From the NCBI GenBank assembly GCA_040510995.1, contig JBEVHX010000065.1, positions 1-40,553 of the forward strand: a stretch of DNA of 40,553 bases. The letters are read 5' to 3'. Shown piece after piece: positions 23,379 through 40,553 of this stretch (the stretch's first letter is position 1; each line of letters begins with the position of its first letter). Position numbers and translations under genes: made by a program. The notes below the pieces were generated by a model. It was not told the DNA's origin, did not search any database, and saw only the letters and a list, made by a program, of their open reading frames with translations. The stretch is from Candidatus Nanopelagicales bacterium. Its GTDB lineage: Bacteria; Actinomycetota; Actinomycetes; JBEVHX01.

Positions 23379-23507
23379 CCGCGGATCACCTCCGACTGCC
23401 GCGGGCGAGCGTTCTTACATATGGAACGGGATCCCTTTATCTGGAACCGTAGGAGGGCTAACGTCGATGAGTCAAGAGCTCCACCAGCACCCGAGGGAGC
23501 ACCCGTC

Positions 23508-24465: not shown

Positions 24466-25383
24466 ATGAGCGACCGAATCCTGCGGCTGCAGCACGTCGA
24501 GGTCCGGGTTCCCGACCTCGAGCTGTGTACGGCGTACTACACCGAGGTTGTCGGGCTCCTCGAGGTCGCGCACGAAGAGGGCCGCGTCTTCCTCAAGTGC
24601 TGGGACGAGCACGAGCACCACTCGGTGGTCCTGCGGCAGGCACCCACGTACGGGCTCGATCACATGTCGTTCAAGGTGGCCAACGCTGCTGACCTCGACC
24701 ACTACACGGAGCGGGTGGAGGCGGCCGGCATCCCGGTCAAGCGCTATGCGGCCGGGGAGCTCGGCCCTGGGTGGGGCGATGCGATCCGCTTCGAGGTCCC
24801 GAGCGGGCACCTGGTTGAGCTCGTGCACGGGATGCAGAAGGTCGGCAACCTGTTGCCGCTGACCAACCCGCCGCCCAGGCCGGCCGGACTTGTTGGCATC
24901 GCTCCGCCGCGACTCGACCACGTCTTCGTCACTGCCGAGGACGTCGAGGCCAGCACGGCGTTCTTCCGTGATGTGCTCGACTTCAGGCTCACCGAGCAGA
25001 TCCTCGCCAACGACGGCCACCAGCTGCTGACCTTCCTCGAGCGCTCGCACACCCCGCACGACATCGCCTTCGTGACCGGCCCGAACGGTGGGCTGCACCA
25101 CTTCGCGTTCTGGCTCGACGACTGGAACGCGGTGCGCGAGGCCGCCGACCACCTCGCATACAACGGGGTGACGATCGAAGTCGCGCCCACTCGGCACGGC
25201 GCGACCCGCGGTTACACGCTGTACTTCTTCGACCCGGTCGGGAACCGCAACGAGGTCTTCACCGGCGGCTACTGGGTCGACCCGGACTTCGAGCCAATCA
25301 CCTGGACCGAGGAAGAGATGGGTCGGGCGATCTTCTACTACGCCCGCGAGGTCAACGAGCGCTTCTTCACGGTGCATTCGTGA
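24466..25383 (+). CDS. Catechol 2,3-dioxygenase (type I extradiol dioxygenase), copy 2
   Basis: Collinear paralog of copy 1 (LQHVEVRVPD, HVFVTAEDV, PHDIAFVTGPNGGLHHFAFW, TRHGATRGYTLYFFDPVGNRNEVF). Confidence 0.9.
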   Translation: MSDRILRLQHVEVRVPDLELCTAYYTEVVGLLEVAHEEGRVFLKCWDEHEHHSVVLRQAPTYGLDHMSFKVANAADLDHYTERVEAAGIPVKRYAAGELGPGWGDAIRFEVPSGHLVELVHGMQKVGNLLPLTNPPPRPAGLVGIAPPRLDHVFVTAEDVEASTAFFRDVLDFRLTEQILANDGHQLLTFLERSHTPHDIAFVTGPNGGLHHFAFWLDDWNAVREAADHLAYNGVTIEVAPTRHGATRGYTLYFFDPVGNRNEVFTGGYWVDPDFEPITWTEEEMGRAIFYYAREVNERFFTVHS

Positions 25384-25400: not shown

Positions 25401-25453
25401 ATGTTGACGTTCGCGCCCGATGTCGGCGTGACATCGGGTGCGAACGTCAACAT
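25401..25453 (+). terminator. Very long stem-loop (24-bp stem including one G-U pair, 5-nt loop) between dioxygenase copy 2 and the phosphatase gene
   Basis: ATGTTGACGTTCGCGCCCGATGTC-GGCGT-GACATCGGGTGCGAACGTCAACAT was read directly. No T-tract follows, so it may act as an attenuator, mRNA stabiliser or processing site. Confidence 0.5.
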
Positions 25454-26508
25454 CGGGGGCAACGGTGAGTAGCCCTGTGTTCCGGCGGACCGATCGGACG
25501 GACGCGCCGTACTACCTGGCTCGCTACGCCGAGCGGCGCGCGCAGCCTGGGCAATCCGGGCAGCCGACGCACGACGACGAGTCGCTGCCGTTGTATCTGC
25601 GGCGATTCCGTGAGCGACAAGCACAATCCGCCGGCACCCGACCCAGCACGCGGCTGCTCGAGGTCGACGGTGAACGCTTCACCACGGCGTATGCGGCCGC
25701 GACCCGCAGCCACGAGGTCGTGCAGCCGCCGGAGCGGCGCGAGGCCGACTCCATCACCACCGAGATCCGAATCATCCGGCACGGCATCACGCAGGGGTAC
25801 TCGACCGACGCCGGGCTGACGCCGATGGGCGGCTGGCAGGCACACCAGCGTGGGCACGCGCTGTCGAAGACGCTGCGTGCGTGGCCGAAGATGCGGATCG
25901 TCTGCGCCGACACCAACCGCGCGCGGCAGACCGCGGAGCAGATCCACCGTGGGCTGCTCGACGGCCTCGACCAGTACGGGCGGGAAGCCGAGATCATCGG
26001 CCCGGAGCCGATCGAGGAGCTGCGCAACTTCCAGGTGTGGACACCCGACGGACCGCGCGACATCACGTCGGCGTTTCGGCAGTACCAGTCGCTGATGGAG
26101 AAGCTCGAGCGGATGGCGGTCGGCGACCGGCCGCGATGGCTGGTCGAGATCGACCGTTTCTACCGCACCCAGCTCGGCGGATCGGACCCGATCCAGATGT
26201 GGCTGAACATCCCGCTGATGTACTTCGAGCCGCCCCAGGCATGCGTCCGTCGGTTCTGGCGTGGCTTCCACCGGCTCATCGCGGAGTCACCCGGCACGCG
26301 GATCATCGCCGCGACGCACTCCGGGCCAATCCGCGCGTTCGCGACCTGGGCGCACGGCTATGACCCGGGCGAGCCGCACAACACCGAGGAAGTCATCGTC
26401 CGCATCCGCGAGGGCGGGCGGACCGCGCTGATCTCCTACCGCAACCGGGTCACCGAGGTGAACGTCCCGCCGCCCGACGAGCTGCCGATCTGGGACGGCA
26501 GCCGCTGA
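25438..26508 (+). CDS. Histidine phosphatase (phosphoglycerate mutase-like) family protein with an N-terminal extension of about 100 aa
   Basis: RHG catalytic motif ([12 protein letters not shown]), RARQTA, and the second His motif ([13 protein letters not shown]). The start is uncertain: GTG 25438 lies inside the hairpin, while GTG 25465 follows GGGGG and lies outside it. Confidence 0.75.
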
Positions 26509-26539: not shown

Positions 26540-27436
26540 ATGACCAAGGCAGTCGCCGCTATCGTCGGCCCCGGCAACATCGGCACCGACCTGCTCGCGA
26601 AGCTGCGACGCAGCGAGCACGTCGACGTCGCCTACATGGTGGGAGTCGTTGCGTCCGACGGCATCGAGCGGGCCCGGTCGTTGGGGATCGCCGCGTCCGC
26701 GGGTGGCGTTGACTGGCTGCTGCAACAGGAGCCGCTGCCGTCGGTCGTGTTCGAGGCGACGTCGGCCAAGGCGCACAAGGCAAATGCCCCGCGGTATGCG
26801 GCCGCCGGCATCACCGCCGTCGACCTGACACCGGCGGCGGTCGGACCTTTCGTCTGCCCGCCCGTCAACCTGCGCGAGCACATCGGCGCGCCGAACCTCA
26901 ACATGATCAGCTGCGGTGCGCAGGCGACGGTGCCGATCGTGCACGCGGTGTCGTCCGTCGTACCGGTGCCGTATGCGGAGATCGTCGCGTCGGTGGCGTC
27001 CAAGTCCGCTGGGCCGGGAACCCGGGCGAACATCGACGAGTTCACGCACACGACGTCACGGGCCGTCGAGGAGGTCGGCGGCGCGGTACGCGGCAAGGCC
27101 ATCATCATCCTCAACCCTGTCGAGCCGCCGATGATCATGAAGGACACCATCTTCTGCGCGATCCCGGCCGATGCCGACCAGAACGCGATCGCCGAATCGG
27201 TGCACAAGCGGGTGGCCGAGGTGCAGGAGTACGTCCCCGGGTACACGCTGCGCGCCGACCCGCAGTTCGACACCCCGCGCGAGCAGTGGAACGGCAACGC
27301 GCGGGTGGCTGTGTTCATCGAGGTCCGCGGCGCGGGCGACTACCTGCCCGAGTACGCAGGCAACCTCGACATCATGACCGCTGCCGCCGCGCAGGTGGGC
27401 GAGGTCGTCGCAACGTCGGTGAGGGCTTCGGCATGA
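26540..27436 (+). CDS. Acetaldehyde dehydrogenase (acetylating), DmpF/MhpF/XylQ type
   Basis: [13 protein letters not shown] Rossmann motif, the catalytic-Cys region [10 protein letters not shown], and the expected position upstream of the aldolase. Confidence 0.95.
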
Positions 27437-28488
27437 CGACGGCTGCCGCTCCGGTCGCATACGACCTGAGGATCACCGACACGACGCTGCGCGACGGGTC
27501 ACACGCGATGGCGCACCAGTTCACCGAGGAGCAGGTGCGCGCCGTGGTGCACGCGCTGGACGCCTCCAACGTCCAGGTCATCGAAGTCACACACGGCGAC
27601 GGCCTCGGCGGCTCGTCGTTCAACTACGGCTTCTCCCGCGAGGACGAGATCACGCTGATCTCGGCGGCGGTCGAGGAAGCGCTTCAAGCTGCGATCGCGG
27701 TCCTGTTGGTACCCGGCATCGGCACGATGAACGACTTGCGCGGCGCTCGTGACGCCGGCGCATCGGTCGCGCGGATCGCGACCCACTGCACCGAGGCCGA
27801 TGTGTCCATCCAGCACTTCGGCCTGGCCCGTGAGCTCGGCATGGAGACGGTCGGCTTCCTGATGATGGCGCACCGCACCGACCCGGACACCCTGGCGCAG
27901 CAGGCCCGCATCATGGTTGACGCCGGGGCGCAGTGCGTCTACGTCGTCGACAGTGCCGGCGCGCTCGTGCTGGGCGACGCCCAGGCACGGGTCGAGGCGC
28001 TGCACCGAGAAATCGGCGGGCAGGCGGAGATCGGCTTCCACGGACACCAGAACCTGTCGCTCGGCGTCGCCAACTCGGTGCTCGCCTACCAGAACGGCGC
28101 GAAGCAGATCGACGGTGCGCTGTGCGCGCTCGGTGCCGGTGCGGGGAACTCGCCCACCGAGGTGCTGGCCGCGACGTTCGACCACCTCGGGGTGCAGACC
28201 GGGCTCGATGTCGGCGGCGTCCTCGCGGCGGCCGAGGAGGTGGTGCGCCCGTTCCTGCCACGCTGGCCGAAGATGGACCGCTCCGCGATCGTGCAGGGCT
28301 GGGCCGGGGTGTACTCCTCGTTCCTGCTGCACGCCGAACGCGCAGCCGAGCGCTACGACGTGCCAACGCACGAGATCCTGCAACGGGTCGGCGAACTCGG
28401 CTACGTCGGCGGCCAGGAGGACATGATCATCGACGTCGCGCTCCAGCTCGCGCAGGAGCGTGACCTGGCCGCGACCGGCGCCCGCTGA
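27433..28488 (+). CDS. 4-hydroxy-2-oxovalerate aldolase, DmpG/MhpE/XylK type
   Basis: [12 protein letters not shown]..., [15 protein letters not shown]. The ATG overlaps the upstream stop (ATGA). The ORF was trimmed from 27286. Confidence 0.95.
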
Positions 28489-28503: not shown

Positions 28504-29934
28504 ATGGACTTCATCCCGCACGTGATCGACGGCCAGGAGGTCGAGTCGGTCTCCGGCGCGCGCTTCCCCGACGTGGATCCCTGGACGCAGGAGGCGTACG
28601 CGGAGGTCGCGCTTGGTGACGCCGCCGACGCAGCCCGCGCGGTGGCTGCCGCCCGGCGGGCGTTTGGCGAGGGACCCTGGCCGCGCATGGGGTTCGCCGA
28701 GCGCGGTGCGCTGATCCACGGGTTCGCGGACCTGCTCGACGCGCACGCGAGCGATCTGGCGATGGCCGACACCCGCGACATGGGCAAGCCGATCACCGAC
28801 TCCCGCGGCAAGGATGCGCCGCGCACGGCGCTCAACTTCCGCTTCTTCGCCGACCACGCCCGCTTGTCGACCTCACACGCATACCCGATGGACACCGGAC
28901 ACCATGCATATGCGCGGCACGAGCCGGCCGGTGTCGCCGTCGCCATCGCACCGTGGAACTTCCCGATGATGCTCGAGTCTTGGAAGGTCGCGCCCGCGCT
29001 GGCGTGGGGCAACACCGTCGTGCTCAAGCCGGCGGAGGACACCCCGGCGTCGGCGACGCTGATGGCCCGGTTGGCATTGGAGGCCGGCTTCCCACCGGGC
29101 GTGTTCAACGTGGTGCACGGGTTCGGCCCGGACTCCGTCGGGGCGGCGCTGACCTCGCATCGCGGCGTGGACCGGATCACGTTCACCGGGGAGTCCGGCA
29201 CCGGGCGGGTGATCGCGGCGGCGGCCGCCGCGAACTTGGTGCCGGTGTCCTTCGAGCTCGGCGGCAAGGGGGCAAACCTGGTCTTCGACGACGCCGATCT
29301 CGACAACGCGCTCGACTGGTCGTTGCGGGCGATCTTCCTCAACGCTGGTCAGGTCTGCCTGTCCGGCAGCCGGCTGTACGTCCAGCAGGGGATCTATCGA
29401 GAGTTCGTCGACCGGTTCGTCGCCGGTGCCAAGGAGATGGTCGTCGGAGACCCGAAGGACGCATCGACGCAGATCGGCCCGCTCGCGTCCGCCGAGCACT
29501 TCAAGAAGGTGTCCTCCTACGTCGACGCCATCGATTCGGAGGGCGGTCGGATGCTCACGGGTGGCCTGGGCGACGGCTGGGTGGTGCAGCCGACGGTTGT
29601 CGAGGGCATGCCGCAGTCGTCGCGGCTGGTGCAAGAGGAGATCTTCGGCCCCTTCGTCGTCGTGCAGCCCTTCGACTCCGAGGACGAGGCGGTGCGGCTG
29701 GCCAACGACACACGGTACGGGCTCAATGCGATGGTCTTCACCGAGAACCTGTCGCGCGCGCACCGGGTCTCGGCCGCGCTACGTGCCGGGACGATCTGGG
29801 TCAACTGCTTCTTCATTCGCGAGCTGCGTGCGCCGTTCGGCGGCTTCGGCGACTCCGGCGTCGGCCGCGAGGGCGGCGACTACAGCCGCGAGTTCTTCAC
29901 CGAGCCCAAGGCCGTCGTCATGGCCATCTCCTGA
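28504..29934 (+). CDS. NAD+-dependent aldehyde dehydrogenase, 2-hydroxymuconic (or 2-aminomuconic) semialdehyde dehydrogenase-like
   Basis: ALDH signatures FELGGKGA and the catalytic-Cys region FLNAGQVCLSGSR. Operon context with the meta-cleavage lower pathway. Confidence 0.85.
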   Translation: MDFIPHVIDGQEVESVSGARFPDVDPWTQEAYAEVALGDAADAARAVAAARRAFGEGPWPRMGFAERGALIHGFADLLDAHASDLAMADTRDMGKPITDSRGKDAPRTALNFRFFADHARLSTSHAYPMDTGHHAYARHEPAGVAVAIAPWNFPMMLESWKVAPALAWGNTVVLKPAEDTPASATLMARLALEAGFPPGVFNVVHGFGPDSVGAALTSHRGVDRITFTGESGTGRVIAAAAAANLVPVSFELGGKGANLVFDDADLDNALDWSLRAIFLNAGQVCLSGSRLYVQQGIYREFVDRFVAGAKEMVVGDPKDASTQIGPLASAEHFKKVSSYVDAIDSEGGRMLTGGLGDGWVVQPTVVEGMPQSSRLVQEEIFGPFVVVQPFDSEDEAVRLANDTRYGLNAMVFTENLSRAHRVSAALRAGTIWVNCFFIRELRAPFGGFGDSGVGREGGDYSREFFTEPKAVVMAIS

Positions 29935-30017: not shown

Positions 30018-30476
30018 TCACCGGACCTGGACCACCATCTCGACTTCGACGGCGAAGCCGAGCGGCAACGCGTACACCCCGATCGCCGACCGGGCATGCG
30101 CTCCAACGTCCGGACCGAACACGGAGACAAGCAGGTCTGAGGCGCCGTTGACCACCATCGGCTGCTGGGTGAAGTCGCGGGTGCAGGCCACGAACCCGAG
30201 TACCTTGACGACCTGCCTGACCTGGTCCAGGGACCCGAGCGCGTCGCGGGCCTGGGCGAGCAGGTTGAGTGCGCAAACCTGCGCCGCGGCTTGACCCTGC
30301 TCGAGCGTCAGGTCGTCGCCGACGCGTCCCAAGTGGCCGTCGGCGCCCTGGCCGGACAGGAAGAGCAGGTCACCGGCAGTCACCCAGCCGCGGTAGCTGC
30401 CGGCCGGTGAGCGAAGTGCGGGGATGACCAGGCCTAGGTCGGCGAGTCGTTCTTCTGGCGTACTCGGTGCGCTCAT
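30018..30476 (-). CDS. RidA/YjgF family protein (enamine/imine deaminase-like)
   Basis: The ORF was trimmed to MSAPSTPEERL (ATG at 30476), giving 152 aa. The pattern LFLSGQG...ARSAIGV..LP.GFAVEVE is typical of RidA-family proteins. Confidence 0.8.
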   Translation of the reverse strand: MSAPSTPEERLADLGLVIPALRSPAGSYRGWVTAGDLLFLSGQGADGHLGRVGDDLTLEQGQAAAQVCALNLLAQARDALGSLDQVRQVVKVLGFVACTRDFTQQPMVVNGASDLLVSVFGPDVGAHARSAIGVYALPLGFAVEVEMVVQVR

Positions 30477-30549
30477 GAAGGCCATCGGATCACGGCCGCG
30501 ACGATCTGCGGGCCTTCTTCGGCCGCTGCCGCCACCCAGGGCGAGCGGA

Positions 30550-31533
30550 TCAATACCCGGCTCGCACGGAGACGACCACCTTGCCGAGCGCTTTCCCGTC
30601 ACCGAAGTAGCGCATCGCTTGGGGGGCTCGCTCGAGCGGATAGACGCGGTCGATCAGCGGTGTCACTCGGCCCGCTTCGACGAGTTCGTTCATGGCTACG
30701 AGGTCCTCCCGCGTCAGCCTGTACAGCAGCAGTCCGACGCGGCGTCGTCGCGGGATCGCCGTCCATCCGCCGTAGGCGACGGTCTGCAGGATGACCCCAG
30801 TCGCACCGCCGACGACGACGTAGCGCCCCGACGGCTTCAGAACGCGGCGTGGATGTCGGACAGATCGATGCGCCGCCAAGTCCAGGATCAGGTCGAATCG
30901 CTGCTTCGTGACCGTGTAGTCCTCCGCTTCGAAGTCGACGACATGGTCGGCACCGACGGCGCGCATCGTGTCCAGCTTGTGGGCGGCGTCGACCGCCGTC
31001 ACCTCGGCGCCGAAGGCCTTGGCGATCTGAATGGCGAACGTGCCCGCACCGCCGCCGCCACCGTTGATCAGGACGCGATGTCCAGGCGAGACCGGGCCGT
31101 TGCGTCGTAGTCCCTGCAACGCCAGCAGCCCGGCCTGCGGGATGGCTGCCGCCTGCTGGAAGGTCAGGTCCGGCGACTTGGGCGCGAGCGCACGCGCGGG
31201 CGCGGCGACGTACTCGGCGAAGCCGCCGAAGCCCGAGCCACCGGCCAGGTCACCGAACACCTCGTCGCCCACCCCGATGTCCCGCACGCTCGGCCCTGCC
31301 GCTTCGACGACTCCGGCGACGTCACCCCCGAGGATGCGCACCCGCGGCGCACGCAGCCCGGTGCCGAGCCGCGTGAGGTAGGGAACGCCACGCATCGCGT
31401 CCCAATCCCACGCGTTGATCGACGACGCGTGCACGCGCACGAGGACCTGGTCGTCGGTCGGCGCCGGCGTCGGGACCTCGCGCACCTCCAGGACATCGGA
31501 TGAGCCGTAGCGCTCATAGACAACCGCGCGCAT
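30550..31533 (-). CDS. NAD(P)-dependent zinc-type alcohol dehydrogenase / quinone oxidoreductase (MDR family)
   Basis: MRAVVYERYG..., VRVHASSINAWDW, the nucleotide motif INGGGGGAGTFAIQIAK, and the C-terminal GKVVV. Confidence 0.85.
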   Translation of the reverse strand: MRAVVYERYGSSDVLEVREVPTPAPTDDQVLVRVHASSINAWDWDAMRGVPYLTRLGTGLRAPRVRILGGDVAGVVEAAGPSVRDIGVGDEVFGDLAGGSGFGGFAEYVAAPARALAPKSPDLTFQQAAAIPQAGLLALQGLRRNGPVSPGHRVLINGGGGGAGTFAIQIAKAFGAEVTAVDAAHKLDTMRAVGADHVVDFEAEDYTVTKQRFDLILDLAAHRSVRHPRRVLKPSGRYVVVGGATGVILQTVAYGGWTAIPRRRRVGLLLYRLTREDLVAMNELVEAGRVTPLIDRVYPLERAPQAMRYFGDGKALGKVVVSVRAGY

Positions 31534-32291: not shown

Positions 32292-33248
32292 TCACTCCGA
32301 CTGGACGACGCGGGTGACCCCGTCGGGAGTCGTCACCATGGGCTCGTCGTTGCCACCCATCGCGGCCAACCCGAGAAACACCAGGGCAGCGACGGACAGC
32401 CCGACGAACGAACGCCCGACGATGACGCGGCCCCGACCCTCTGCCCCGCGCCACAGCGCCGCGCACACCGCCAGACCGCACAGGGCAAGCGCCCACAGCG
32501 CGAACCAGACCGGTGAACCGGTGAACGATGTGAACTCCGTGCTCGGGACGTCACCGTCACCATCAGCCTGCCCCCACGCGGTGTACGGGGTCAGCAGGTG
32601 CAGCACGCGCGATAGCGGCGACGAGGCATCCATCGACTCAATCGGCGAGTACGCGGCCCACGCGCACCAGAACAACAGGATGCCGACGCAGAGCAGGATC
32701 GCGCCCGGGAACCGAAGCCAGCGACCCACGGCGACCCCAAGCAGCGGGCCACCCACGCTGAAGATCACCGGCAGGACCCCGACGATCACGACCTGCTCGA
32801 GCGAGCCATAGGTCCCGTAGATCCACTCCTCTGGGGGGTCGGACGTGACGATCGCTGCATGCAGAAGCACCAGGGCCAACCCCGCACTCATCGGGACGAG
32901 GCAAGCGAGGCAGAGCGCCGCCGTACGCACGGTGTCCGACAGCGGCGCGCCCCTCATGACCTCCTGCGACCGGCTCGTCGACCGAGTCAGCCGGGCCGCG
33001 ACGACAAACCCGAACACTCCGACGAGAAAGCCTGGGATCACTTGGAAGTCGAGGTTCTCCGGACCTCTCGCGACTTCTCCGCGCGATGCCGGTCCGCCGC
33101 TCCCGATCACGACGGTCGCCCAGACCGCGAGGCCGAGACCGACCAGGAACATCGGATGCCGCGCGAACCGCTTGGCCTCGATCCAGGCAAGGACCGAAAG
33201 CGACGAGCGGGACCGGGCCGCAGTCAGAGGCAACGCCATCGTGGTCAT
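32292..33248 (-). CDS. ABC-2-type transporter permease-like membrane protein
   Basis: 318 aa, about 6 TM segments. The ATG overlaps the stop of the ABC ATPase gene (ATGA). Confidence 0.6.
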   Translation of the reverse strand: MTTMALPLTAARSRSSLSVLAWIEAKRFARHPMFLVGLGLAVWATVVIGSGGPASRGEVARGPENLDFQVIPGFLVGVFGFVVAARLTRSTSRSQEVMRGAPLSDTVRTAALCLACLVPMSAGLALVLLHAAIVTSDPPEEWIYGTYGSLEQVVIVGVLPVIFSVGGPLLGVAVGRWLRFPGAILLCVGILLFWCAWAAYSPIESMDASSPLSRVLHLLTPYTAWGQADGDGDVPSTEFTSFTGSPVWFALWALALCGLAVCAALWRGAEGRGRVIVGRSFVGLSVAALVFLGLAAMGGNDEPMVTTPDGVTRVVQSE

Positions 33249-34123
33249 GCCGCCACCTCCGCGTCGTCCGGAGCGGACGCGCCGCGCAGCAGAAGGTAGG
33301 CATCTTCGAGGCTCGGCTCGACCAGTTCTGCGTCCGGCGGTGCCGTCTGGCCGAGGTTGCGGTAGCGGCCGGTCCCGGTTCGCCACGACGCGCTCGCCCG
33401 CGGGTCAGCCCGGTCGGCCAACCAGACGCGTCCGGCCGCCTCGTTCACGAGGTCCTGGACCCGGCCGTCGAAGCGAACCGACCCTTCGTCGAGCACGACG
33501 ACCCGGTCGCAGAGCGCCGCGACATCGTCGGTCTGGTGGGTCGAGATCACGACGGTCGCAGTCCGGCCCGCCTCGGCCAGAACTTGGCGCAGCGACACCC
33601 GCTGCTCGGGGTCCAGCCCGGTGGTCGGTTCGTCGAGGACGAGCAGCTCCGGGCTGCCGAGCAGCGCTTGTGCGAGAGCGACCCGTCGTCGCTGTCCACC
33701 GGACAAGGCCCGAATGCGCTTCGTCGCCTTGTCCTGGAGCCCGACGGCCGCCAGCGCCCGGCGGACTTCGGTCCGTCTGGCGGCCGCGTCGTCCCACTCC
33801 TTTAACACCGCCATGTAGTCGACGAACGCATACGCGCTGAACCCACGCGGGAATCCGAGCTCTTGCGGCAGGTAGCCGAGGCGGCGACGGATGTCCGTGC
33901 GCTGCTCGGTGTCCGTGACGTCGCGACCGAGGACGCGGACCGACCCGTTGTCCACGGCCAGCACCGTCGCAAGAATGCGCAGCAGCGTCGTCTTGCCGGC
34001 GCCGTTCGGCCCGAGCAGGCCGACGACCCCCGGCTGCATGCGCAGGTTGATCGAACGCAGCGCGGTCGTTCCCCGGAAGGTCTTGGTGACGTGTCTGAGG
34101 TCAACCGTGGTCGTGTCCATCAC
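33245..34123 (-). CDS. ABC transporter ATP-binding protein (ABC-2/DrrA-like)
   Basis: Walker A GPNGAGKTT, signature LSGGQRRRV, Walker B LLVLDEPT. Confidence 0.9.
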   Translation of the reverse strand: MMDTTTVDLRHVTKTFRGTTALRSINLRMQPGVVGLLGPNGAGKTTLLRILATVLAVDNGSVRVLGRDVTDTEQRTDIRRRLGYLPQELGFPRGFSAYAFVDYMAVLKEWDDAAARRTEVRRALAAVGLQDKATKRIRALSGGQRRRVALAQALLGSPELLVLDEPTTGLDPEQRVSLRQVLAEAGRTATVVISTHQTDDVAALCDRVVVLDEGSVRFDGRVQDLVNEAAGRVWLADRADPRASASWRTGTGRYRNLGQTAPPDAELVEPSLEDAYLLLRGASAPDDAEVAA

Positions 34124-34154
34124 TCCCCCTTGACTTTCGAACGTTCAGAACTGA

Positions 34155-34991
34155 TCACGGCATTTGCCACAGCAGACCGAGGCTGCGCAACCGGACGACC
34201 AAGGCGACGCTGACGAGGACAGTGGTGATCGCGTATGCGACGAGCAGCTCCGGCGCGAGTACGCCCAGCGGATCCCCGGCACGAGTCCACCAGACCACTG
34301 CGACCAGCCAGCTCAGGGCCACCACCGCCGCTGCGTACGCGGTGTCGACCCAAGTGCTGGCGAGCAGGGTGATCGCCACGAAGCCGACAGCGGGCAGCAG
34401 CCAGGCCGGGGTGACCTGCTGACCGACCGGCAACAGGCTGCTGAGCGCGACGAGAGGAAGGCAGGTCACAAGCACCGCGGCCGTGCGGAACAGGACGAGA
34501 CGCAGCATGGGGTATGGTGTCACCGCCGTCGCCTCATAGGACGGATCGGCAGAAGGACCGTAGGACGCGGCGACGCCGGCAACTGGGATGAGCGGCGCGA
34601 CCAGCAGGAACAGGCTGAGTCCGCGGTCCCCGCCGAAGGCTCCGGCGAGCACGACGAACATCAACGCAGCGGTGATCCCGCCGAGCCATGACAGCCGCAT
34701 GGACGGCGCGGACGCCACGAGCAACGCCTGGCTTCGCGGCAGCCCCAATCGCACCAGGATGCGTTCGACAAACAATGGCCGAGGCGTCTCGATGTCATCG
34801 AGGACCCTGTCCCACACCCCATCGAGCGACGGCATCGCGACCATCCGGGCGACCATGCCGCGACATGCCGCACAGCGAACCACGTGCTGCTCGACTGACG
34901 CACCCAGCAGCGTGCCGGCAGTGCCATCAACCCAGCGGCGCAACGACTGCTCGTCCGCGTGCCAGGCGTGAGGGATGTCGATGCCGCTCAT
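34155..34991 (-). CDS. Membrane anti-sigma factor with an N-terminal zf-HC2 (ZAS-type) domain
   Basis: H11-x24-H36-x3-C40-x2-C43 (HAWH...QHVVRCAAC) reproduces the ChrR/RsrA zinc-ligand spacing. About 6 C-terminal TM helices. The start overlaps the sigma stop (ATGA). Confidence 0.75.
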   Translation of the reverse strand: MSGIDIPHAWHADEQSLRRWVDGTAGTLLGASVEQHVVRCAACRGMVARMVAMPSLDGVWDRVLDDIETPRPLFVERILVRLGLPRSQALLVASAPSMRLSWLGGITAALMFVVLAGAFGGDRGLSLFLLVAPLIPVAGVAASYGPSADPSYEATAVTPYPMLRLVLFRTAAVLVTCLPLVALSSLLPVGQQVTPAWLLPAVGFVAITLLASTWVDTAYAAAVVALSWLVAVVWWTRAGDPLGVLAPELLVAYAITTVLVSVALVVRLRSLGLLWQMP

Positions 34992-35554
34992 GCCAACCCC
35001 TCCATCAGCTGAGAGCGCAAGTGCGCTTTCGCCCGGTGCAGGCGGGACTTCACGGTGTTCTCGGGGACTCGAAGCAGGCGCGCGGTCTCCTTCGTCGTCA
35101 GTCCGTCAAGCACCACGGCTTGGACGACCGCGCGCATCTCAGGCGACAGTGTGGCGAGGGCAGAGCCCAGCCCTCCGTACTCGACCCCGGCCAGCAACCG
35201 CTCCTCCACTCCAGGCTCAATGCCGACCTCGACGTCGGCGAATGGGAATTCGGCCGAGCCGGCCACCCGACGCAGCCGGGAGACGAGCCGCCGGATGGCG
35301 ATTCCCCAGACCCAGCCGGCGACCTCGCCGTCCCCGCGGTACGCGGAGGCGCCCTTCCACACCCCGACGAAGGTGTCCTGGAGAACGTCGGCGACAGCCT
35401 CCGGGTCGTTGCATCGCCTGGTCAGACGCACGGACACCCACGGCGCGTGCCGCTCGTAGAGCTGGCGGAGCGCGCCCGTGTCACCCCCAGCTACCTGACT
35501 CAGCAGCTCGGCGTCCGTGCGTCCTGTGGACTCCGTGGACTCCCCCACACTCAT
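34988..35554 (-). CDS. ECF-type RNA polymerase sigma-70 factor
   Basis: Region 2 (DVLQDTFVGVWKGASAYR) and the region 4 HTH (LTTKETARLLRVPENTVKSRLHRA). The start is uncertain (ATG 35554 chosen; the ORF is open to 35668). Confidence 0.85.
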   Translation of the reverse strand: MSVGESTESTGRTDAELLSQVAGGDTGALRQLYERHAPWVSVRLTRRCNDPEAVADVLQDTFVGVWKGASAYRGDGEVAGWVWGIAIRRLVSRLRRVAGSAEFPFADVEVGIEPGVEERLLAGVEYGGLGSALATLSPEMRAVVQAVVLDGLTTKETARLLRVPENTVKSRLHRAKAHLRSQLMEGLA

Positions 35555-35689
35555 CCTGTCGCCGGCGGAGGTCGGAACGGTTCCCTCGGCGCCATCGTGC
35601 TCCTGGGCGGCCGCTTGGTCAGCGATGGATCGAAACAGTTTCACCGTTGCCGACCAGCCGCCGGGCAACCGAGGCCGGGTCGAGCGGGG

Positions 35690-35941
35690 TCAGTGCTCCG
35701 CCTCGTGTCCGACGACGCGCTCGCTGAGCACGATGTCGCCTCTCCAGCCGCACGCCGCGCACCAGCAGACGAAGACTCGGTCGGCGGCGACCCAGTACTC
35801 GGTCGCGATCCCCCGGGCGCCCTCCCCCACCGCCAGCGGCGCCGCGCAAGCCGGGCAGAAGCGCGGCGCGTCCCGCAGGTGCCGCTCCGCGTCCTGTTCG
35901 AAGCCGGTGCGTCGAGCGCGCTGAGTGCCCACGGCACTCAT
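35690..35941 (-). CDS. Small Cys-rich protein (83 aa; CPAC ... CWCAAC), zinc-ribbon or rubredoxin-like
   Basis: The ATG overlaps the stop of the Rieske oxygenase gene (ATGA). Almost all codons end in G/C by hand reading. There are 5 Cys, including 2 CxxC motifs 27 residues apart. Confidence 0.55.
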   Translation of the reverse strand: MSAVGTQRARRTGFEQDAERHLRDAPRFCPACAAPLAVGEGARGIATEYWVAADRVFVCWCAACGWRGDIVLSERVVGHEAEH

Positions 35942-37206
35942 CGTGCCGCAGCCGCCTCCTCACGCGCCTCTTCTCTGGACTGGCCGGCCTGGATGTGCAG
36001 CTTTCGCAACGCGTCCACCTGCGGGCTGAATTTCGTCGACGCCATGTTGATGAAGTCAAGCGCGAACTCCGCGCCAGCGTCGAACTTGTTCTTCTCGCAC
36101 GGCAGGTCGATCCGGTCGTGCGGCTCGCGGATCGTGCCGAGCGGGTCGCCACCGTCTGCCACGACCTTCATCTGCTCCTTGAACATCCGGCGCAGCATCG
36201 TGACTCCGACGTCGGACTTGCCGAGGTGCTCGACTGTCCGGTCGGTCACGCGCCCCTGCGTGCACCAGGCCATGATGTCCTGGCCCTCGACATAGTCCGT
36301 GACATGCCGGCCGTGCTCGTCGAACACCGGGATGGCGTAGTCCGGCACCATGGCCTGCGTTGGAAACTCGATCCCCGGCGGCGCGTGCACCGAGTACAGC
36401 ATGAAGCGAGTCGTGTCGCGGTCGATGGGTACCCGGATCTGCATCTGCTCGATGTTTGCGCCGCCGACCCGCATGTTGTAGGGGAACACGAGCGGGTGGC
36501 CGACCTTCCAGTCGTCGTCCTCCTCCGTCGCGCCCTCGAGCACGCGACGCTTGATGATGCCCCAGTCGAAGACGTCGAAGCCCACCTTCTGGTGCTGCTT
36601 GGCGAACGACGCCGGTGCCTCGAACCCCTTCTGCCGCCCCAAGAACTGGAAGTACCGGCCATGCAGGAACTCCACGTGGTGCGGGTCGACCGCGTTCTCC
36701 ATGATCTGGATCAGGTTGCAGGGGATGTCCGCCCATCCGATGTCCCGTACCCCGTCCATGACGAACACGTCGAACCGCGGCAGCTCCGGCGCGGGAAGCG
36801 GCCCCAGGTAAGCCCAGACCAAGCCGCCGAGCTCCTGCACCTTCCCGGCCTGTATCCGGACGCGGTCTTTGAAGTTGGTCTCCTCCCGCTCAGCCGGCTG
36901 CTCTAGGCACGAACCGTCCAGCCCAAAGAGCCACCCGTGGTACGGGCAGCGCAGCCCGTCGGGCTCCACCACGCCGTACGCCAACGACGCACGCCGGTGG
37001 GGGCAGGCCTCAGGGAGGATCCCGTAGTACCCACTCGCCGTCTTGAACACCGCGAAGTCCTCGCCGAGCAGCCTGGTCTGCTTCACCGGGAACTCCTCGA
37101 GCTCGCGGGTGAACGCGACCGGGTACCAGTACCGCCGCAACAGCTCGCCCATCGGCGTGCCGGCGTCGAATGTGGTCAGCTCCTCGTTCTGCTGCGCGGT
37201 CAGCAT
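35938..37206 (-). CDS. Rieske non-heme iron oxygenase, alpha subunit only (phthalate-family / LigXa-, KshA-like class)
   Basis: The ORF was trimmed to MLTAQQNEEL (ATG 37206, RBS GGGAGAG). Rieske ligands CPHRRASL...CPYHGWLF and the mononuclear iron motif NAVDPHHVEFLH are present. No beta subunit or reductase gene is adjacent. Confidence 0.9.
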   Translation of the reverse strand: MLTAQQNEELTTFDAGTPMGELLRRYWYPVAFTRELEEFPVKQTRLLGEDFAVFKTASGYYGILPEACPHRRASLAYGVVEPDGLRCPYHGWLFGLDGSCLEQPAEREETNFKDRVRIQAGKVQELGGLVWAYLGPLPAPELPRFDVFVMDGVRDIGWADIPCNLIQIMENAVDPHHVEFLHGRYFQFLGRQKGFEAPASFAKQHQKVGFDVFDWGIIKRRVLEGATEEDDDWKVGHPLVFPYNMRVGGANIEQMQIRVPIDRDTTRFMLYSVHAPPGIEFPTQAMVPDYAIPVFDEHGRHVTDYVEGQDIMAWCTQGRVTDRTVEHLGKSDVGVTMLRRMFKEQMKVVADGGDPLGTIREPHDRIDLPCEKNKFDAGAEFALDFINMASTKFSPQVDALRKLHIQAGQSREEAREEAAAAR

Positions 37207-37244
37207 GTGCGCTCTCCCGTGGATGTGTCGGATATGCGACGCGG

Positions 37245-39062
37245 TCAGCCGCCGTTGTCGAGCACAGTGACCGTGCCCGCGTTGCCGTCGACCCGGATCC
37301 GCTGGCCGGACTTGATGGTCTTCGTGGCGAAAGCCGTCCCCGTGACGGCCGGCAAGCCGTACTCCCGACACACGATCGCGGCGTGGCTCATGATTCCGCC
37401 GACGTCGGTGACCGTGGCCGCGATCTTGCCGAAGACAGGGGCCCACGACGGTGCGGTGAGCGGGGCGACCAGGATCTCGCCGTCCTGCAGCTCGTTGATG
37501 CCGTCGGCCGACAGGATCACCCGGGCCGGCCCCTCGGCGATGCCGGGTGACGCCGCGAATCCGGAGAGCCCTCCGCTGTCGTCCGCGCCGCCGAGCCACT
37601 GCTGCACGCTCTCCGACGTGATGCCCCACAGCATGATCGTGAACGGCTCGGTGATGGTCTCGGGTGGCGCGCCGAGCGCCGGCGGCGGCGACCACTGCCG
37701 GAGGGCGTTCATGATGCCGCGGCGGCGTTCGATCTCTCGCTGCCAGTACTGCGGGCCGCGCGACGGCACCCCGACGGCCCAGCCGTGGTAGTAGTCGAAC
37801 AGCGCCTGCGGTACCTCGAAGCGGTTGAGCAGGAACACGTCGTCGGGGTCAGTGAAGAACCCAGCCCCGACCAGGACCCGCCCGAAGTCGCGCATCTTGC
37901 GCCAGATGATCGAGTGCGCCCAGTGCTCGACATAGAAGTTGTGGTTCTCGACGTACGGGAAGACGGTGCGGGCTAGACCGAGCTTCATCTCGAAGGCCTT
38001 CTTGTCCTCCTCGCTGCCGATCAGCTCGGAGTACTCGGCGACGATTCGGTCCCGCTCCTTGGTGATGACTTCGGTCGGCCGCTCCAACGCTTCACCCCGC
38101 TGTCGCTTGGCGATGTAGCTGCGGATGAAGCCGAGCGGGATGTCGAGGTTCTCGATCCACACCTTGTCGGCGCTGTAGAACGCCGTCCCCGACGAGAAGT
38201 TGAACCACGGCTCTTTCGCCTTCTCCCATTCGGCCAGCCACTGCTCGCCTGCCGGGTGCTCCTTGACCGCAGCCAGGGTCTCGTCGACCGACCCGGACAT
38301 GAGTGCGCTGGCAAGGTCCAGGTCGACCGCGAGCGTCGCCAGCCGCTTGAGCTCCTCGTCGGGCCTGAACAGGTCCACCTCGATCCCCGCGACCATCTTG
38401 GCGATGGCCTGATCCGGGATGTTCGGGAAGACGCCCTTACAGAAGCCGAAGAAGTCGAGGTAGGCCGCATACCCGAGGTTGAGGAACTCGAAGTGGTAGT
38501 TCCAAAGCTTGAGCGTGAGATCGACCAGCCGGTTATAGGTCGTGGTCAGCTCGAAACCGCTTCCGCTGCCGAGACCCTCGGTGATGACCGAGAGGTCCTC
38601 CTTCTCGGGCAGCGGGGAGATGGTCAGCGCGTCGAGGTCGTCGATGAGCGCCCGCACCTTCGGCATCCATGCCGCGTACAGCCGATCCCAGTTCTCGAAA
38701 TAGAAGCCAGCGCGCTCCATGAAGTGCGGCACCCGGGACTCGATCTCCGCCGGATCGGCGACCCCCACCGGCGTGAGGAACATGTAGCCGTTGAGTACCC
38801 GGATGTCGACGCCGAGCGCCGGCGGGATCAGGTAGTGCCGGGTGTTGTACTGCGAAAGGGAAATGATGGCGAACTCGAAAACTGTCGCGTCCCAGGGGGG
38901 CACTACCTCGGGCGTGTGCACGCCGTCGTGGAACCAGAACATCGACTCCTCATACTCGCGCCGGTCATCGCTGAACATCAGCGAGTACGGGTAGAGCTGC
39001 TCCCAACCCTCAGCGCCCGCCGGCACGGTCATGTCGAATGGGCTCGGGAAACGGTCTGCCAT
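37245..39062 (-). CDS. PEP-utilising (swivel-His) enzyme, phenylphosphate synthase alpha (PpsA)-like subunit
   Basis: The C-terminal mobile domain carries the phospho-His signature GGIMSHAAIVCREYGLPAV. The large N-terminal domain begins FPSPFD..PAGAEGWEQLYPY and contains LSQYNTRHYLIPP, as I remember for PpsA-type proteins. ATG 39062 is preferred because of the strong RBS GGGGAGGAA. Confidence 0.8.
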   Translation of the reverse strand: MADRFPSPFDMTVPAGAEGWEQLYPYSLMFSDDRREYEESMFWFHDGVHTPEVVPPWDATVFEFAIISLSQYNTRHYLIPPALGVDIRVLNGYMFLTPVGVADPAEIESRVPHFMERAGFYFENWDRLYAAWMPKVRALIDDLDALTISPLPEKEDLSVITEGLGSGSGFELTTTYNRLVDLTLKLWNYHFEFLNLGYAAYLDFFGFCKGVFPNIPDQAIAKMVAGIEVDLFRPDEELKRLATLAVDLDLASALMSGSVDETLAAVKEHPAGEQWLAEWEKAKEPWFNFSSGTAFYSADKVWIENLDIPLGFIRSYIAKRQRGEALERPTEVITKERDRIVAEYSELIGSEEDKKAFEMKLGLARTVFPYVENHNFYVEHWAHSIIWRKMRDFGRVLVGAGFFTDPDDVFLLNRFEVPQALFDYYHGWAVGVPSRGPQYWQREIERRRGIMNALRQWSPPPALGAPPETITEPFTIMLWGITSESVQQWLGGADDSGGLSGFAASPGIAEGPARVILSADGINELQDGEILVAPLTAPSWAPVFGKIAATVTDVGGIMSHAAIVCREYGLPAVTGTAFATKTIKSGQRIRVDGNAGTVTVLDNGG

Positions 39063-39133
39063 GGCGTTCCTCCCCTGACGCATCACCGCGTCATCGCTCT
39101 CGCACCGTCAGCGACCGCTGCCGGACTTCTTGC

Positions 39134-40219
39134 CTAACGCACCTGCTGGCTCGCTCTGCCGTGCAATGGATCCATCAGCGTGTGAACGATGCTCTCGAGG
39201 TAGCCCTCGTCGCCGCGCCGCGACGGTCCGGGCGACTTGCGGCTCCAGACCGTCTCCGGCCGGCTCTGCAGGAGCAGCACGTTGTCCGGCGCCGGCAGGT
39301 CGGCGTCGATGGCCCACTCCACGTCCTGCGGGCAGCCGTAGTGCTTCTCGGACTTGCGCGCCAGTTTCGCGACCGCGGCGATCTCCTCGTCGGACAGGCA
39401 GGGCTCGTCGCGGCGGGTCTCGTCGACGTCGACCTCGACCACCGTGTCGTCATCGCCCAGGGTGTGCTCGACCGTCTTGCTCGAGATCGTGCGCCGGGTG
39501 ACGGTGCCAAGCACCTTGTCGACGAGGAAGTTGTCCGGCGTCACCGATCCGCTGACGACTGCCTCACCGAAACCCCACGACGCGTCGATCGCCACCTGAG
39601 ATCGGTCGCCATTGTGCGGGTTCAGCGTGAACGCCACTCCTGATGTCCGCGGCAACACCATCTTCTGCACGCCCACGCTCATCGCGATGCCGTCGTCCGC
39701 ATATCCCATCGCGCGTCGGTAGGCGATCGCGCGGTCGGTGAACAGGCTCGCCCAGCACCGCCGCACGTGCTCGACCACCGCGTCGGGGCTGCGGATCCAC
39801 AGGTAGGTGTCGTGCTCGCCGGCGAAGCTGGCGTCGGGTGAGTCCTCGCACGTCGCCGACGAGCGCACTGCGACCGGCACGTCCGCGCGCACGCAGCGCT
39901 GCGACAGTTCGGCGTACGCGGCCCGAATCTCGTCGTCCAGCCCGGCCGGCAGCTGCGCCTCCATCACCAGGGCGCGGGCGACGGTCCCGGCGGCACTCAC
40001 CGTCGCGGGCGAGTCGGGCACCACATCCGCGAGCACTTCGGTCAGGGACTCGGCAAGCCCATTGCTGGCGAGCAGTTCCCGGTATGCGGCACAGGTGATT
40101 GCGAACCCGGGAGGGACCGGCAGCCCGGCCGCCGTCATCACCCCAAGGCTCGCGTTCTTGCCACCAAGCTGCGGCTCGTCGCCGGGCGCATACGCGTCGA
40201 ACCACGTGATGTGACTCAC
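39134..40219 (-). CDS. PEP/pyruvate-binding (PPDK_N, ATP-grasp) protein, phenylphosphate synthase beta (PpsB)-like subunit
   Basis: LGGKNASLG nucleotide-binding start, VAVRSSATCED, and SWGFGEAVVSG, which are typical of the N-terminal domain of PEP synthase/PPDK. GTG start at 40219 with the RBS AAGGAGG. Confidence 0.85.
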   Translation of the reverse strand: MSHITWFDAYAPGDEPQLGGKNASLGVMTAAGLPVPPGFAITCAAYRELLASNGLAESLTEVLADVVPDSPATVSAAGTVARALVMEAQLPAGLDDEIRAAYAELSQRCVRADVPVAVRSSATCEDSPDASFAGEHDTYLWIRSPDAVVEHVRRCWASLFTDRAIAYRRAMGYADDGIAMSVGVQKMVLPRTSGVAFTLNPHNGDRSQVAIDASWGFGEAVVSGSVTPDNFLVDKVLGTVTRRTISSKTVEHTLGDDDTVVEVDVDETRRDEPCLSDEEIAAVAKLARKSEKHYGCPQDVEWAIDADLPAPDNVLLLQSRPETVWSRKSPGPSRRGDEGYLESIVHTLMDPLHGRASQQVR

Positions 40220-40404
40220 GAGTCGCCTCCTTGCGTTGCCGGGACGTTAGGCGCCGATGACCTGCGGCAACAACCCATGCGTCCCGCCGAGCGGAACAGT
40301 CCGGACTTTCCTCCGCGATCTTGTGCCTGCTTCAACGACACGGGAGATGATCATGAAGACCCCTCCCGCGCGCCTGGCGGATGGGCAGGAGACATGATTC
40401 GGGC

Positions 40405-40553
40405 ATGGCACTGGACCTGGCCCACCACATGTTTGCCGCGCTCGAGCAGCTGCGCATCCACCCGACCGGCAAGCGGATCCGCGCCTACACCGACGGGGCG
40501 CTCGCTGTGGACTCGACGTGGGCAGTGATCGTGTGGGAGCCGCGCCGGGTGGT
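40405..40553 (+). CDS. N-terminal fragment of a DUF427-like protein (runs off the window)
   Basis: The frame from ATG 40405 reads MALDLAHHMFAALEQLRIHPTGKRIRAYTDGALAVDSTWAVIVWEPRRVV, which resembles the DUF427 N-terminal pattern (..kRiRa...g..vadS..a..vwE). Only 49 codons are visible. Confidence 0.4.
   Translation, partial: MALDLAHHMFAALEQLRIHPTGKRIRAYTDGALAVDSTWAVIVWEPRRV

Follow-up and report, generated by a model that had tools for sequence, protein, structure and literature searches.

A two-component phenolic dikinase encoded with a Rieske oxygenase beside catechol meta-cleavage genes: a probable phosphorylation-dependent route for small phenols in a soil actinobacterium

Results

Layout of the four-gene operon

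The window analysed here is the whole of contig JBEVHX010000065.1 from a Candidatus Nanopelagicales bacterium (GenBank assembly GCA_040510995.1), a stretch of 40,553 nucleotides that represents a complete contig and ends at position 40553. Close to that end lie four open reading frames (ORFs), all on the minus strand, encoding the two subunits of a putative phenolic dikinase (named DikB and DikA), a Rieske oxygenase (RO) and a small cysteine-rich protein. A previous reading of the window, made from the letters alone and referred to below as the sequence-only reading, had described these as four same-strand genes with short gaps and one ATGA overlap; reading of the window sequence confirmed both coordinates and spacing. 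The four genes are the following.

39134–40219, minus strand: DikB, 361 aa, predicted ATP-grasp (PPDK_N) subunit of a two-component phenolic dikinase (PF01326, E 3.4e-111)
37245–39086, minus strand: DikA, predicted substrate-binding and swivel phospho-His subunit (PF00391, PRK08296)
35938–37206, minus strand: alpha-only RO of the phthalate-dioxygenase family, 422 aa (PF00355 and LigXa_C tail)
35690–35941, minus strand: Cys-rich RO partner, probably zinc-ribbon-like, 83 aa (Cys 29, 32, 59, 61 and 64)

Two starts can be read for DikA, a GTG at 39086 giving 613 aa and an ATG at 39062 giving 605 aa, the latter being the database call. Read from the sequence, the gap between DikB and DikA is 47 or 71 nt and that between DikA and the RO 38 nt, and the start codon of the small gene overlaps the stop codon of the RO gene by 4 nt (ATGA). 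Promoter and terminator scans of 34900–40553 gave no match, a result that is uninformative for a high-GC actinobacterium, and an exact-sequence look-up with DikB returned no match either. The divergent IclR gene of related loci was not found in the last 330 bases of the window. A partial ORF (MALDLAHHMFAALEQLRIHPTGKRIRAYTDG..., approximately 40404–40553, plus strand) runs off the contig end at the place where relatives have this divergent IclR gene.

Pfam scans of the window genes detected no UbiD-type or biotin carboxylase, as the sequence-only reading had stated, and its observation could be extended to 11 Pfam-annotated related loci, in none of which a UbiD-type or biotin-dependent carboxylase domain was present. 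Neither the window nor the annotated relatives contain a PpsC (CBS) gene, a UbiD-type phenylphosphate carboxylase (ppcABCD) or UbiX, and biotin carboxylase, carboxyltransferase and BCCP domains were likewise absent from the window and the annotated loci. The domain assignments were reproduced by hidden Markov model searches, with PF01326 in DikB, PF00391 in DikA and PF00355 in the RO.

The dikinase pair

DikB contains a complete PPDK_N ATP-grasp domain on a separate subunit of the ~40 kDa class, and its top PDB match is HpeI (9goj, E 2.7e-85). In DikA, PF00391 alone was found, at residues 534–604 (the C-terminal PEP-utilizers swivel domain of 72 residues, PEP being phosphoenolpyruvate). Over its full length the protein matches the NCBIfam PRK08296 models (PRK08296.1-2, 863 bits), which are named ‘hypothetical protein’, and the Pfam scan revealed no PEP/pyruvate TIM-barrel domain. 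DikA carries the motif GGIMSHAAIVCR with the active-site sequence GGIMSHAA, in which a Met stands at the regulatory-Thr position and a Ser before the His, as in PpsA and CreH. The stretch GGIMSHAAIVCREYGLPAV is identical in the window DikA, in Azoarcus PpsA and in the cre-like H subunit, and fits the pattern GGxMSHAA; the meaning of this pattern, with Met at the regulatory-Thr position, was taken from the HpeHI paper.

Plasmid-borne homologues served as dikinase references; they were identified by gene context, not by assay, and HpeI was represented by its PDB sequence. In pairwise comparison, DikB showed 48% identity to the cre-like I subunit, 46% to HpeI (9goj) and 45% to Azoarcus PpsB. DikA was 50% identical to PpsA of Azoarcus sp. 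KH32C and, among the references compared, closest to the H subunit (54%) encoded in the cre-like P450 clusters of Rhodococcus plasmids. HpeH, CreH and PpsA are about 45% identical to one another (HpeHI paper). Together with their orthologues, DikA and DikB form a separate clade of the same depth as the reference phenolic dikinases.

These values agree with the split PpsB/PpsA-type dikinase proposed by the sequence-only reading. On sequence grounds, membership of the two-component phenolic dikinase family (PpsAB/CreHI/HpeHI) is well supported, because no model for housekeeping PEP synthase or rifampin phosphotransferase comes near its cut-off (358 versus 598 and 271 versus 999) and the PEP/pyruvate-binding domain is missing; both of these identities were rejected. 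Orthology of DikA or DikB to any characterised dikinase is not supported by the same comparisons.

The Rieske oxygenase and its small partner

The RO has an intact Rieske motif (C68-x-H70...C87-x2-H90) and the iron motif E170-x3-D174-x2-H177-x4-H182 with a conserved D310; the Rieske and iron ligands are conserved across 97 homologues. No beta-subunit gene was present among the window ORFs or in annotated related loci. The top PDB match is the phthalate dioxygenase (PDO) 7fjl of Comamonas testosteroni KF1 (E 1.6e-46), and 7fhr, a putative phthalate 4,5-dioxygenase, is a further relative. Pfam gave weak matches to the C-terminal domains of LigXa and VanA, both O-demethylases, and the PDB matches include dicamba O-demethylase. 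Phthalate-family Rieske oxygenases generally take anionic aromatics, and methyl monooxygenases are also found in this family. The two phthalate-binding Arg of PDO did not align with Arg in the RO in a HMMER alignment with our own residue mapping; the region aligns poorly and with low confidence, so no conclusion was drawn.

Homologues of the RO with 44–47% identity occur on plasmids of Burkholderia, Caballeronia and Peribacillus, where they adjoin dihydroxyphthalate decarboxylase or class II aldolase genes together with Gfo/Idh/MocA oxidoreductases. These neighbourhoods are contexts for anionic aromatic acids.

The small protein has no Pfam family and is a ‘hypothetical protein’ in every source. 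Its invariant residues comprise the five Cys (C29, C32, C59, C61 and C64, in the pattern CPxC...CxCxxC) as well as D17, H21, E48, W50 and others. An AlphaFold2 model from a 23-sequence alignment had a mean pLDDT of 58.5, which is insufficient for a fold search; a zinc-ribbon-like protein is probable from the Cys pattern and the hairpins predicted. A match to BsaP (E 0.006, 16.5 bits versus a cut-off of 39) was attributed to a shared CxxC knuckle and not to homology.

On plasmid pA of Peribacillus sp. R9-11 (locus L091, 9001–10520), an RO homologue (47% identity) is followed by an ORF of 66 aa that is clearly homologous to the small protein (CPNC...EYW...FCWCGECSWRGEI). This cluster also holds a class II aldolase, a Gfo/Idh/MocA oxidoreductase, a reductase, a ferredoxin and an intradiol dioxygenase, and no dikinase is annotated in the region. 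The occurrence of both homologues without an annotated dikinase argues that the small protein belongs to the RO, as an accessory of that oxygenase lineage rather than of the kinase. The sequence-only reading was right to count the small protein as a member of the operon; its partnership with the RO, revealed by the Peribacillus pair, had been missed. At the Burkholderia locus of the RO homologue, no homologue of the small protein was found.

Conservation in related loci

Related loci were gathered from four anchors: DikA, the RO, the small protein and a histidine phosphatase encoded elsewhere in the window (25438–26508, described below). All four anchors return the same gene set. The RO-anchored set consists of 80 loci from different species (species-representative genomes), and counts out of 77, 74 or 54 refer to the loci that were assessable or fully flanked. 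Gene positions in the relatives (loci of ~73% GC) are based on BLAST-anchored coordinates and precomputed gene calls.

The small gene directly follows the RO gene in 74 of 77 assessable loci. An orthologous DikB-DikA pair lies directly upstream of the RO in 39 of 74 loci, so that the synteny of dikinase, RO and small protein, a point raised by the sequence-only reading, is conserved as a contiguous run of four genes in these 39. Some DikA homologue is encoded within 10 kb of the RO in 51 of the 54 fully flanked loci; for meta-cleavage genes the number is 42 and for a Rieske ferredoxin 32. The four-gene arrangement is far beyond chance. A FNR-type reductase with a plant-type [2Fe-2S] domain is not encoded in the window, and a PDR-like gene was found nearby in 10 of 85 loci.

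The most compact arrangement was observed in locus L088, where two catechol 2,3-dioxygenases (C23O), the histidine phosphatase, DikB, DikA, the RO, the small protein, a 4-oxalocrotonate tautomerase (4-OT), an aldehyde dehydrogenase and a HAD hydrolase are encoded in this order on one strand by touching or overlapping genes. The run from the first C23O to the small gene is the same in loci L082–L085. The gene set is present in at least 80 species-level genomes, and its carriers include Nocardioides, Kineosporia, Pseudonocardia, Actinomycetospora, Streptosporangiaceae and many uncultured Actinomycetota from soil, peat, wood and groundwater. Among isolates, the cluster is found in Nocardioides halotolerans DSM 19273, N. 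silvaticus, Kineosporia sp. A_224, Pseudonocardia acidicola and P. benzenivorans. In six loci the module adjoins a toluene-4-monooxygenase (T4MO)-like enzyme, 78% identical to the one beside the cre-like clusters of Rhodococcus, which would supply phenol or p-cresol.

An orthologous dikinase does not always adjoin the RO. In many Pseudonocardia and Actinomycetospora loci, an orthologous RO (~70% identity) has an IclR gene directly upstream and not an orthologous dikinase, and a distant dikinase pair lies a few kb off, its subunits 27% (A) and 39% (B) identical to those of the window and encoded in the order A then B. This distant pair is part of a second set: divergent from it lie genes for an SDR, a HAD hydrolase and paralogues of the RO (55%) and of the small protein (in Pseudonocardia L044, 3237–8997; also L052, L062 and L073). 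Dikinase and RO-small protein are thus paired in two independent sets, each with a phosphatase-type gene, and this is the strongest argument for a single pathway.

Two further observations on related loci can be mentioned. In many relatives a trio of HAD hydrolase, 4-OT and SDR genes lies beyond the divergent IclR gene upstream of the dikinase (L004, 5531–7338; L086, 5849–7696; L087, 6300–7984); neither the trio nor the adjoining IclR gene is in the window. In a close relative (L096, contig_35508, histidine phosphatase 95% identical), many island genes appear fragmented into short ORFs and toxin-antitoxin genes (PIN, HicB-like) are located between the meta-cleavage genes and the RO, a fragmentation that may reflect assembly frameshifts or decay of the cluster.

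The surrounding catabolic island

At positions below 35,690 the window holds a catechol meta-cleavage cluster and other conserved neighbours of the module.

19295–19738, plus strand: SoxR-type redox-sensing regulator (TIGR01950, 199 bits versus a cut-off of 117)
19830–20183, minus strand: Rieske-type ferredoxin, candidate electron donor of the RO (PF00355; matches ferredoxin components of ring-hydroxylating dioxygenases)
20180–20953, minus strand: 4-oxalocrotonate decarboxylase-like protein (top match TIGR03218, 230 bits, under cut-off)
20953–21738, minus strand: 2-oxopent-4-enoate hydratase-like protein (top match TIGR03220, 257 bits, under cut-off)
21742–22584, minus strand: IclR-family regulator of the meta-cleavage cluster (PF01614, PF09339)
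22581–23378, minus strand: conserved 265-aa protein, transcribed away from the dioxygenase genes (no match in Pfam or NCBIfam)
23421–24419, plus strand: C23O copy 1 (TIGR03211, 370 bits versus a cut-off of 320)
24466–25383, plus strand: C23O copy 2 (TIGR03211, 367 bits versus a cut-off of 320)
25438–26508, plus strand: divergent histidine phosphatase, 356 aa, candidate aryl-phosphate phosphatase (PF00300, weak match)
26540–27436, plus strand: acetaldehyde dehydrogenase (acylating) (PF09290)
27286–28488, plus strand: 4-hydroxy-2-oxovalerate aldolase (longest ORF, start probably near 27440; HMGL-like, DmpG_comm)
28504–29934, plus strand: aldehyde dehydrogenase, hydroxymuconic semialdehyde dehydrogenase-like (PF00171)
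30018–30602, minus strand: RidA/YjgF-like protein, conserved beside the alcohol dehydrogenase (TIGR00004, weak match)
30550–31533, minus strand: Zn-dependent alcohol dehydrogenase/quinone oxidoreductase-like protein (ADH_N, ADH_zinc_N_2)

The meta-cleavage set comprises two C23O above the TIGR03211 cut-off (labelled EDO in the locus maps), and the other steps were assigned by Pfam or by the best NCBIfam match, several of them under the equivalog cut-offs. The aldehyde dehydrogenase, which is conserved in related loci, scored 523 bits with TIGR02299 and 513 bits with TIGR03216, both under cut-off. No 4-OT gene was found in the window, though it is present in relatives. The plus-strand meta-cleavage genes converge on the dikinase-RO operon. 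With this cluster and the conserved neighbours in the window, the functional unit is therefore approximately 19830–40219 and not 35690–40219: the four genes of the sequence-only reading are real, and the meta-cleavage cluster, the histidine phosphatase and the Rieske ferredoxin had escaped it.

The histidine phosphatase keeps the RHG motif, an Arg-rich TNRARQTA motif and an ATHSGP motif, each at least 95% conserved across 31 orthologues. In relatives its gene is located between the C23O and lower-pathway genes, and in L088 and L082–L085 it lies directly upstream of DikB on the same strand. All three loci anchored on the histidine phosphatase have an RO within 10 kb. Its fixed position and its recurrence beside the RO make this enzyme the natural candidate for phosphate removal. 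A HAD hydrolase neighbours the module in ~47 of 85 loci.

Between the operon and the rest of the island, a minus-strand block at 32292–35668 begins 21 nt after the small ORF and holds genes for an ECF sigma factor, an ABC ATPase and two membrane proteins, one of them anti-sigma-like. In the closest relative found (small protein 88% identical), the order is small gene, FAA-family hydrolase, Zn-dependent alcohol dehydrogenase and RidA-like gene, and the last two match those at 30018–31533 of the window. As the relative has the FAA hydrolase in the position of the sigma/ABC block and the same two genes beyond it, the block is considered an insertion.

Some features of the island stand on their own. 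The SoxR-type gene adjoins the Rieske ferredoxin gene at the island edge, and L096 has a MerR-family gene in the same position. The tandem C23O paralogues are kept as a pair in most related loci, possibly for different substrates or as a heteromer. Dozens of loci encode the 265-aa protein (50–69% identity) at the corresponding site, flanked by the IclR gene and the first of the dioxygenase genes, and it could be a pathway component not yet recognised.

Discussion

Comparison with known systems

In Corynebacterium glutamicum, CreHI phosphorylates 4-cresol in an aerobic catabolic route without a carboxylase. The P450 CreJ reportedly oxidises the methyl group after phosphorylation and CreD removes the phosphate, as Du and colleagues are said to have described in 2016. 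The sequence-only reading had started by assuming that all known aryl phosphates are passed to a carboxylase, an assumption contradicted by the CreHI route, and had found no described pathway that fits its logic, for which the Cre pathway is a precedent. A further precedent exists in Ensifer adhaerens HP1, where hydroxylation of 3-hydroxypyridine by HpdA genetically requires a PpsAB-like pair and no carboxylase is involved. With these two cases, the logic of phosphorylation followed by oxygenation without a carboxylase is already known.

The Cre set compared here consists of the CreHI dikinase, the CreJEF P450 system, CreG, CreC and the CreD phosphohydrolase. Like the window, it is aerobic, has a two-component phenolic dikinase as its first enzyme and lacks a carboxylase; in the Cre pathway the phosphate ester is attacked by an oxygenase and later cleaved by a dedicated phosphatase, as is proposed for the window. 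The differences lie in the enzymes. The window has a Rieske enzyme with a Cys-rich partner where Cre has a P450 with ferredoxin and reductase, its candidate phosphatase is a histidine phosphatase (also a HAD protein in relatives) instead of the HD-domain protein of Cre, its genes are set within catechol meta-cleavage instead of a side-chain oxidation to 4-hydroxybenzoate, and its dikinase forms a clade of its own. No P450 or HD-domain genes adjoin the module, and the SDR next to it does not resemble CreG (30% identity or no match). Judged by gene content, the Cre pathway and the module have only their logic in common, not an orthologous gene set.

The cre-like clusters on plasmids of Rhodococcus ruber Y14 and R. 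oxybenzonivorans (L090, L093) contain, in this order, genes for an IclR regulator, a P450, an ATP-grasp and a swivel protein, an SDR, a ferredoxin, a reductase, an HD-domain protein and an aldehyde dehydrogenase, a content that we take to be that of the Cre pathway. As in the window, the ATP-grasp gene precedes the swivel gene, and T4MO is nearby in some loci of the module. With T4MO genes directly beside them, the Rhodococcus clusters point to a route on these plasmids that leads from toluene through p-cresol to 4-hydroxybenzoate.

With the anaerobic PpsABC/PpcABCD system, the window has in common the split of the kinase, the Ser-His catalytic motif and identities of 50% (A) and 45% (B). The canonical set on plasmid pAZKH of Azoarcus sp. 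KH32C encodes a PEP-utilizing enzyme, a PEP/pyruvate-binding protein, a CBS protein, ppcB/D/A/G, UbiD and UbiX. In the window the order of the kinase genes is reversed, the partners are oxygen-dependent enzymes, and PpsC, the UbiD-type carboxylase and UbiX are lacking. HpeHI and AcvAB are likewise two-component phenolic dikinases (DikB 46% identical to HpeI) with a pathway phosphatase after the modifying step, which is the HAD-type HpeD in the Hpe pathway. They differ from the window in their downstream chemistry, which depends on a biotin-dependent carboxylase (HpeCBA/AcvCDEF) that the window lacks, and the active site of HpeH has Cys-His where DikA has Ser-His.

On the oxygenase side, PDO of C. 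testosteroni KF1 (7fjl) resembles the RO in its Rieske and mononuclear-iron motifs and in lacking a beta subunit; the RO differs by a divergent catalytic domain, a dedicated Cys-rich partner and the lack of an adjoining PDR-type reductase gene in the window. The HP1 system, by its published description, ties a PpsAB-like dikinase pair to the hydroxylation of a phenol-like ring, and its hydroxylase is a molybdenum enzyme of unresolved mechanism. No description of a dikinase-Rieske system was found in the full-text literature, a scope that left out most subscription journals; one match in a paper on 2-hydroxyisobutyrate concerned selenide dikinase and was irrelevant. What appears to be undescribed is a phthalate-family RO in place of the P450, together with the Cys-rich accessory, the histidine phosphatase and the integration in catechol meta-cleavage operons.

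Proposed pathway

The four genes are probably the upper module of an island (19830–40219) for the aerobic breakdown of small phenols, the substrate of which would be phosphorylated, oxygenated and dephosphorylated. The oxygenation of an aryl phosphate, already suggested by the sequence-only reading, is kept as the best interpretation. From the gene content we infer, as set out here, the substrate, an RO acting on the phosphate ester, the regiochemistry, and what the phosphatase, ferredoxin and small protein do. By analogy with the family, DikB would bind ATP and DikA would be (pyro)phosphorylated on the His in GGIMSHAA, after which DikA would hand the phosphate to the hydroxyl of a small phenol, giving an aryl phosphate, AMP and Pi. 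Phenol or cresol is the most likely substrate in view of the catechol-type dioxygenases, the closeness of DikA to PpsA and the cre-like kinases, and the T4MO genes in six loci.

The anionic aryl phosphate would then be the substrate of the RO, which would add oxygen next to the ester, working with the Cys-rich partner and probably receiving its electrons via the Rieske ferredoxin of the cluster. The resulting 2-hydroxyaryl phosphate may be hydrolysed by the histidine phosphatase, or by the HAD phosphatase in relatives; alternatively, phosphate may be lost spontaneously after an ipso/ortho dioxygenation. Ortho-hydroxylation with enzymatic hydrolysis is favoured, because the phosphatases are conserved. 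The catechol would be cut by the two C23O and enter the meta pathway.

A broader proposal is put forward more tentatively, and we regard it as possible but somewhat doubtful: soil Actinomycetota may widely use an ATP-driven alternative to phenol hydroxylase, in which phenyl or cresyl phosphate would be attacked by a phthalate-type Rieske dioxygenase with a new zinc-ribbon-like partner, either at the ipso/ortho positions with spontaneous loss of phosphate, giving catechol directly, or with formation of catechol monophosphate and its hydrolysis by the histidine phosphatase.

Several points weigh against the proposed pathway. The operon is cut off from the rest of the island by the 3.4-kb insertion and lacks the divergent IclR gene seen in relatives, and a reductase gene is scarce, with none in the window and PDR-like genes in 10 of 85 loci. 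About half of the loci, in Pseudonocardia and Actinomycetospora, have no orthologous dikinase directly upstream of the RO, and since an IclR gene takes this place and only a distant dikinase is nearby, the RO may not strictly require this dikinase. The Peribacillus homologues of RO and small protein without an annotated dikinase suggest that the RO lineage also acts on unphosphorylated substrates. Finally, two phosphoanhydride bonds would be spent per phenol hydroxylation, with no evident gain over ordinary phenol hydroxylases.

Alternative interpretations

The last two observations on the RO lead to the alternative that kinase and oxygenase do not act in sequence. The RO would then use an unphosphorylated substrate such as an aromatic acid, and the dikinase would serve another step or the trapping of phenols under shared regulation. 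The RO and small-protein homologues in a region without an annotated dikinase and the many Pseudonocardia loci without an orthologous dikinase beside the RO fit such an uncoupling, and a scavenging or trapping role has been proposed for HpeHI in the HpeHI study. It is nevertheless unlikely, given that a dikinase is paired with the RO and small protein in two independent paralogous sets, that the genes are contiguous on one strand with phosphatase genes conserved there too, and that the remaining enzymes of the cluster could neither cleave nor hydroxylate a phosphorylated phenol unless it is a substrate for one of them. Another explanation, in which the pair is a split housekeeping PEP synthase or a rifampin-type antibiotic phosphotransferase, draws on NCBIfam PEP synthase and RPH models that match parts of both proteins. 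The low scores, the missing PEP/pyruvate-binding domain of DikA, its full-length match to PRK08296, the 50–54% identity to PpsA and cre-like proteins and the aromatic-catabolism context of the genes make it highly improbable.

If phosphorylation does precede oxygenation, the RO could still catalyse another reaction. It might replace the P450 CreJ and hydroxylate the methyl group of 4-methylphenyl phosphate, comparable to TsaM on p-toluenesulfonate, with dehydrogenases and phosphatase completing a route to 4-hydroxybenzoate. The nearest plasmid relatives of the dikinase (54%) are in cre-like clusters beside T4MO genes, T4MO-like genes flank the module in six loci, SDR, aldehyde dehydrogenase and HAD hydrolase genes are common neighbours, and phthalate-family ROs include methyl monooxygenases. 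The module is embedded, however, in catechol meta-cleavage operons, the annotated loci contain no 4-hydroxybenzoate or protocatechuate genes, and the adjoining SDR does not resemble CreG; the aldehyde dehydrogenase best fits hydroxymuconic-semialdehyde-type models and sits with the aldolase and the acetaldehyde dehydrogenase. We therefore see little likelihood of a methyl hydroxylation. A similarly small chance is given to an O-demethylation, in which guaiacyl phosphate would yield 2-hydroxyphenyl phosphate and formaldehyde, and dephosphorylation would give catechol. This product would suit the meta-cleavage genes and the phosphatase, many loci come from metagenomes of wood, peat and forest soil, and the LigXa, VanA and dicamba O-demethylase matches of the RO point the same way. 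On the other hand, the closest relative of solved structure is a phthalate dioxygenase, which dihydroxylates the ring; genes for formaldehyde detoxification were not noticed in the annotated loci, and the T4MO context points to unsubstituted phenols or cresols.

Biological significance

The soil actinobacterium possesses a conserved gene set that would probably place a phosphate on a small phenol, oxygenate the product with a Rieske enzyme, remove the phosphate and pass the catechol on to ring cleavage, as proposed above. Such a route would be missed by current annotation, in which its genes go under the names ‘pyruvate, water dikinase’, ‘PEP-utilizing enzyme’ and ‘hypothetical protein’. According to the authors of the HpeHI study, it is an open question why aerobes spend ATP on the phosphorylation of phenols. 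The gene set offers a testable answer: once phosphorylated, a neutral phenol may become an anion that a phthalate-type RO can use, possibly with a leaving group as well.

If the proposal is true, an aryl phosphate would for the first time be a demonstrated substrate of a Rieske oxygenase, and the phosphorylation of phenols by aerobes would have a chemical rationale, since the neutral phenol becomes anionic and gains a good leaving group. Catechol meta-cleavage would gain an entry route that has gone unrecognised and Rieske oxygenases a new accessory protein, and new parts would become available for the bioconversion of lignin aromatics and of benzene, toluene, ethylbenzene and xylene (BTEX). 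The system is widespread and currently mis-annotated, and would give an experimental handle on why aerobes phosphorylate phenols.

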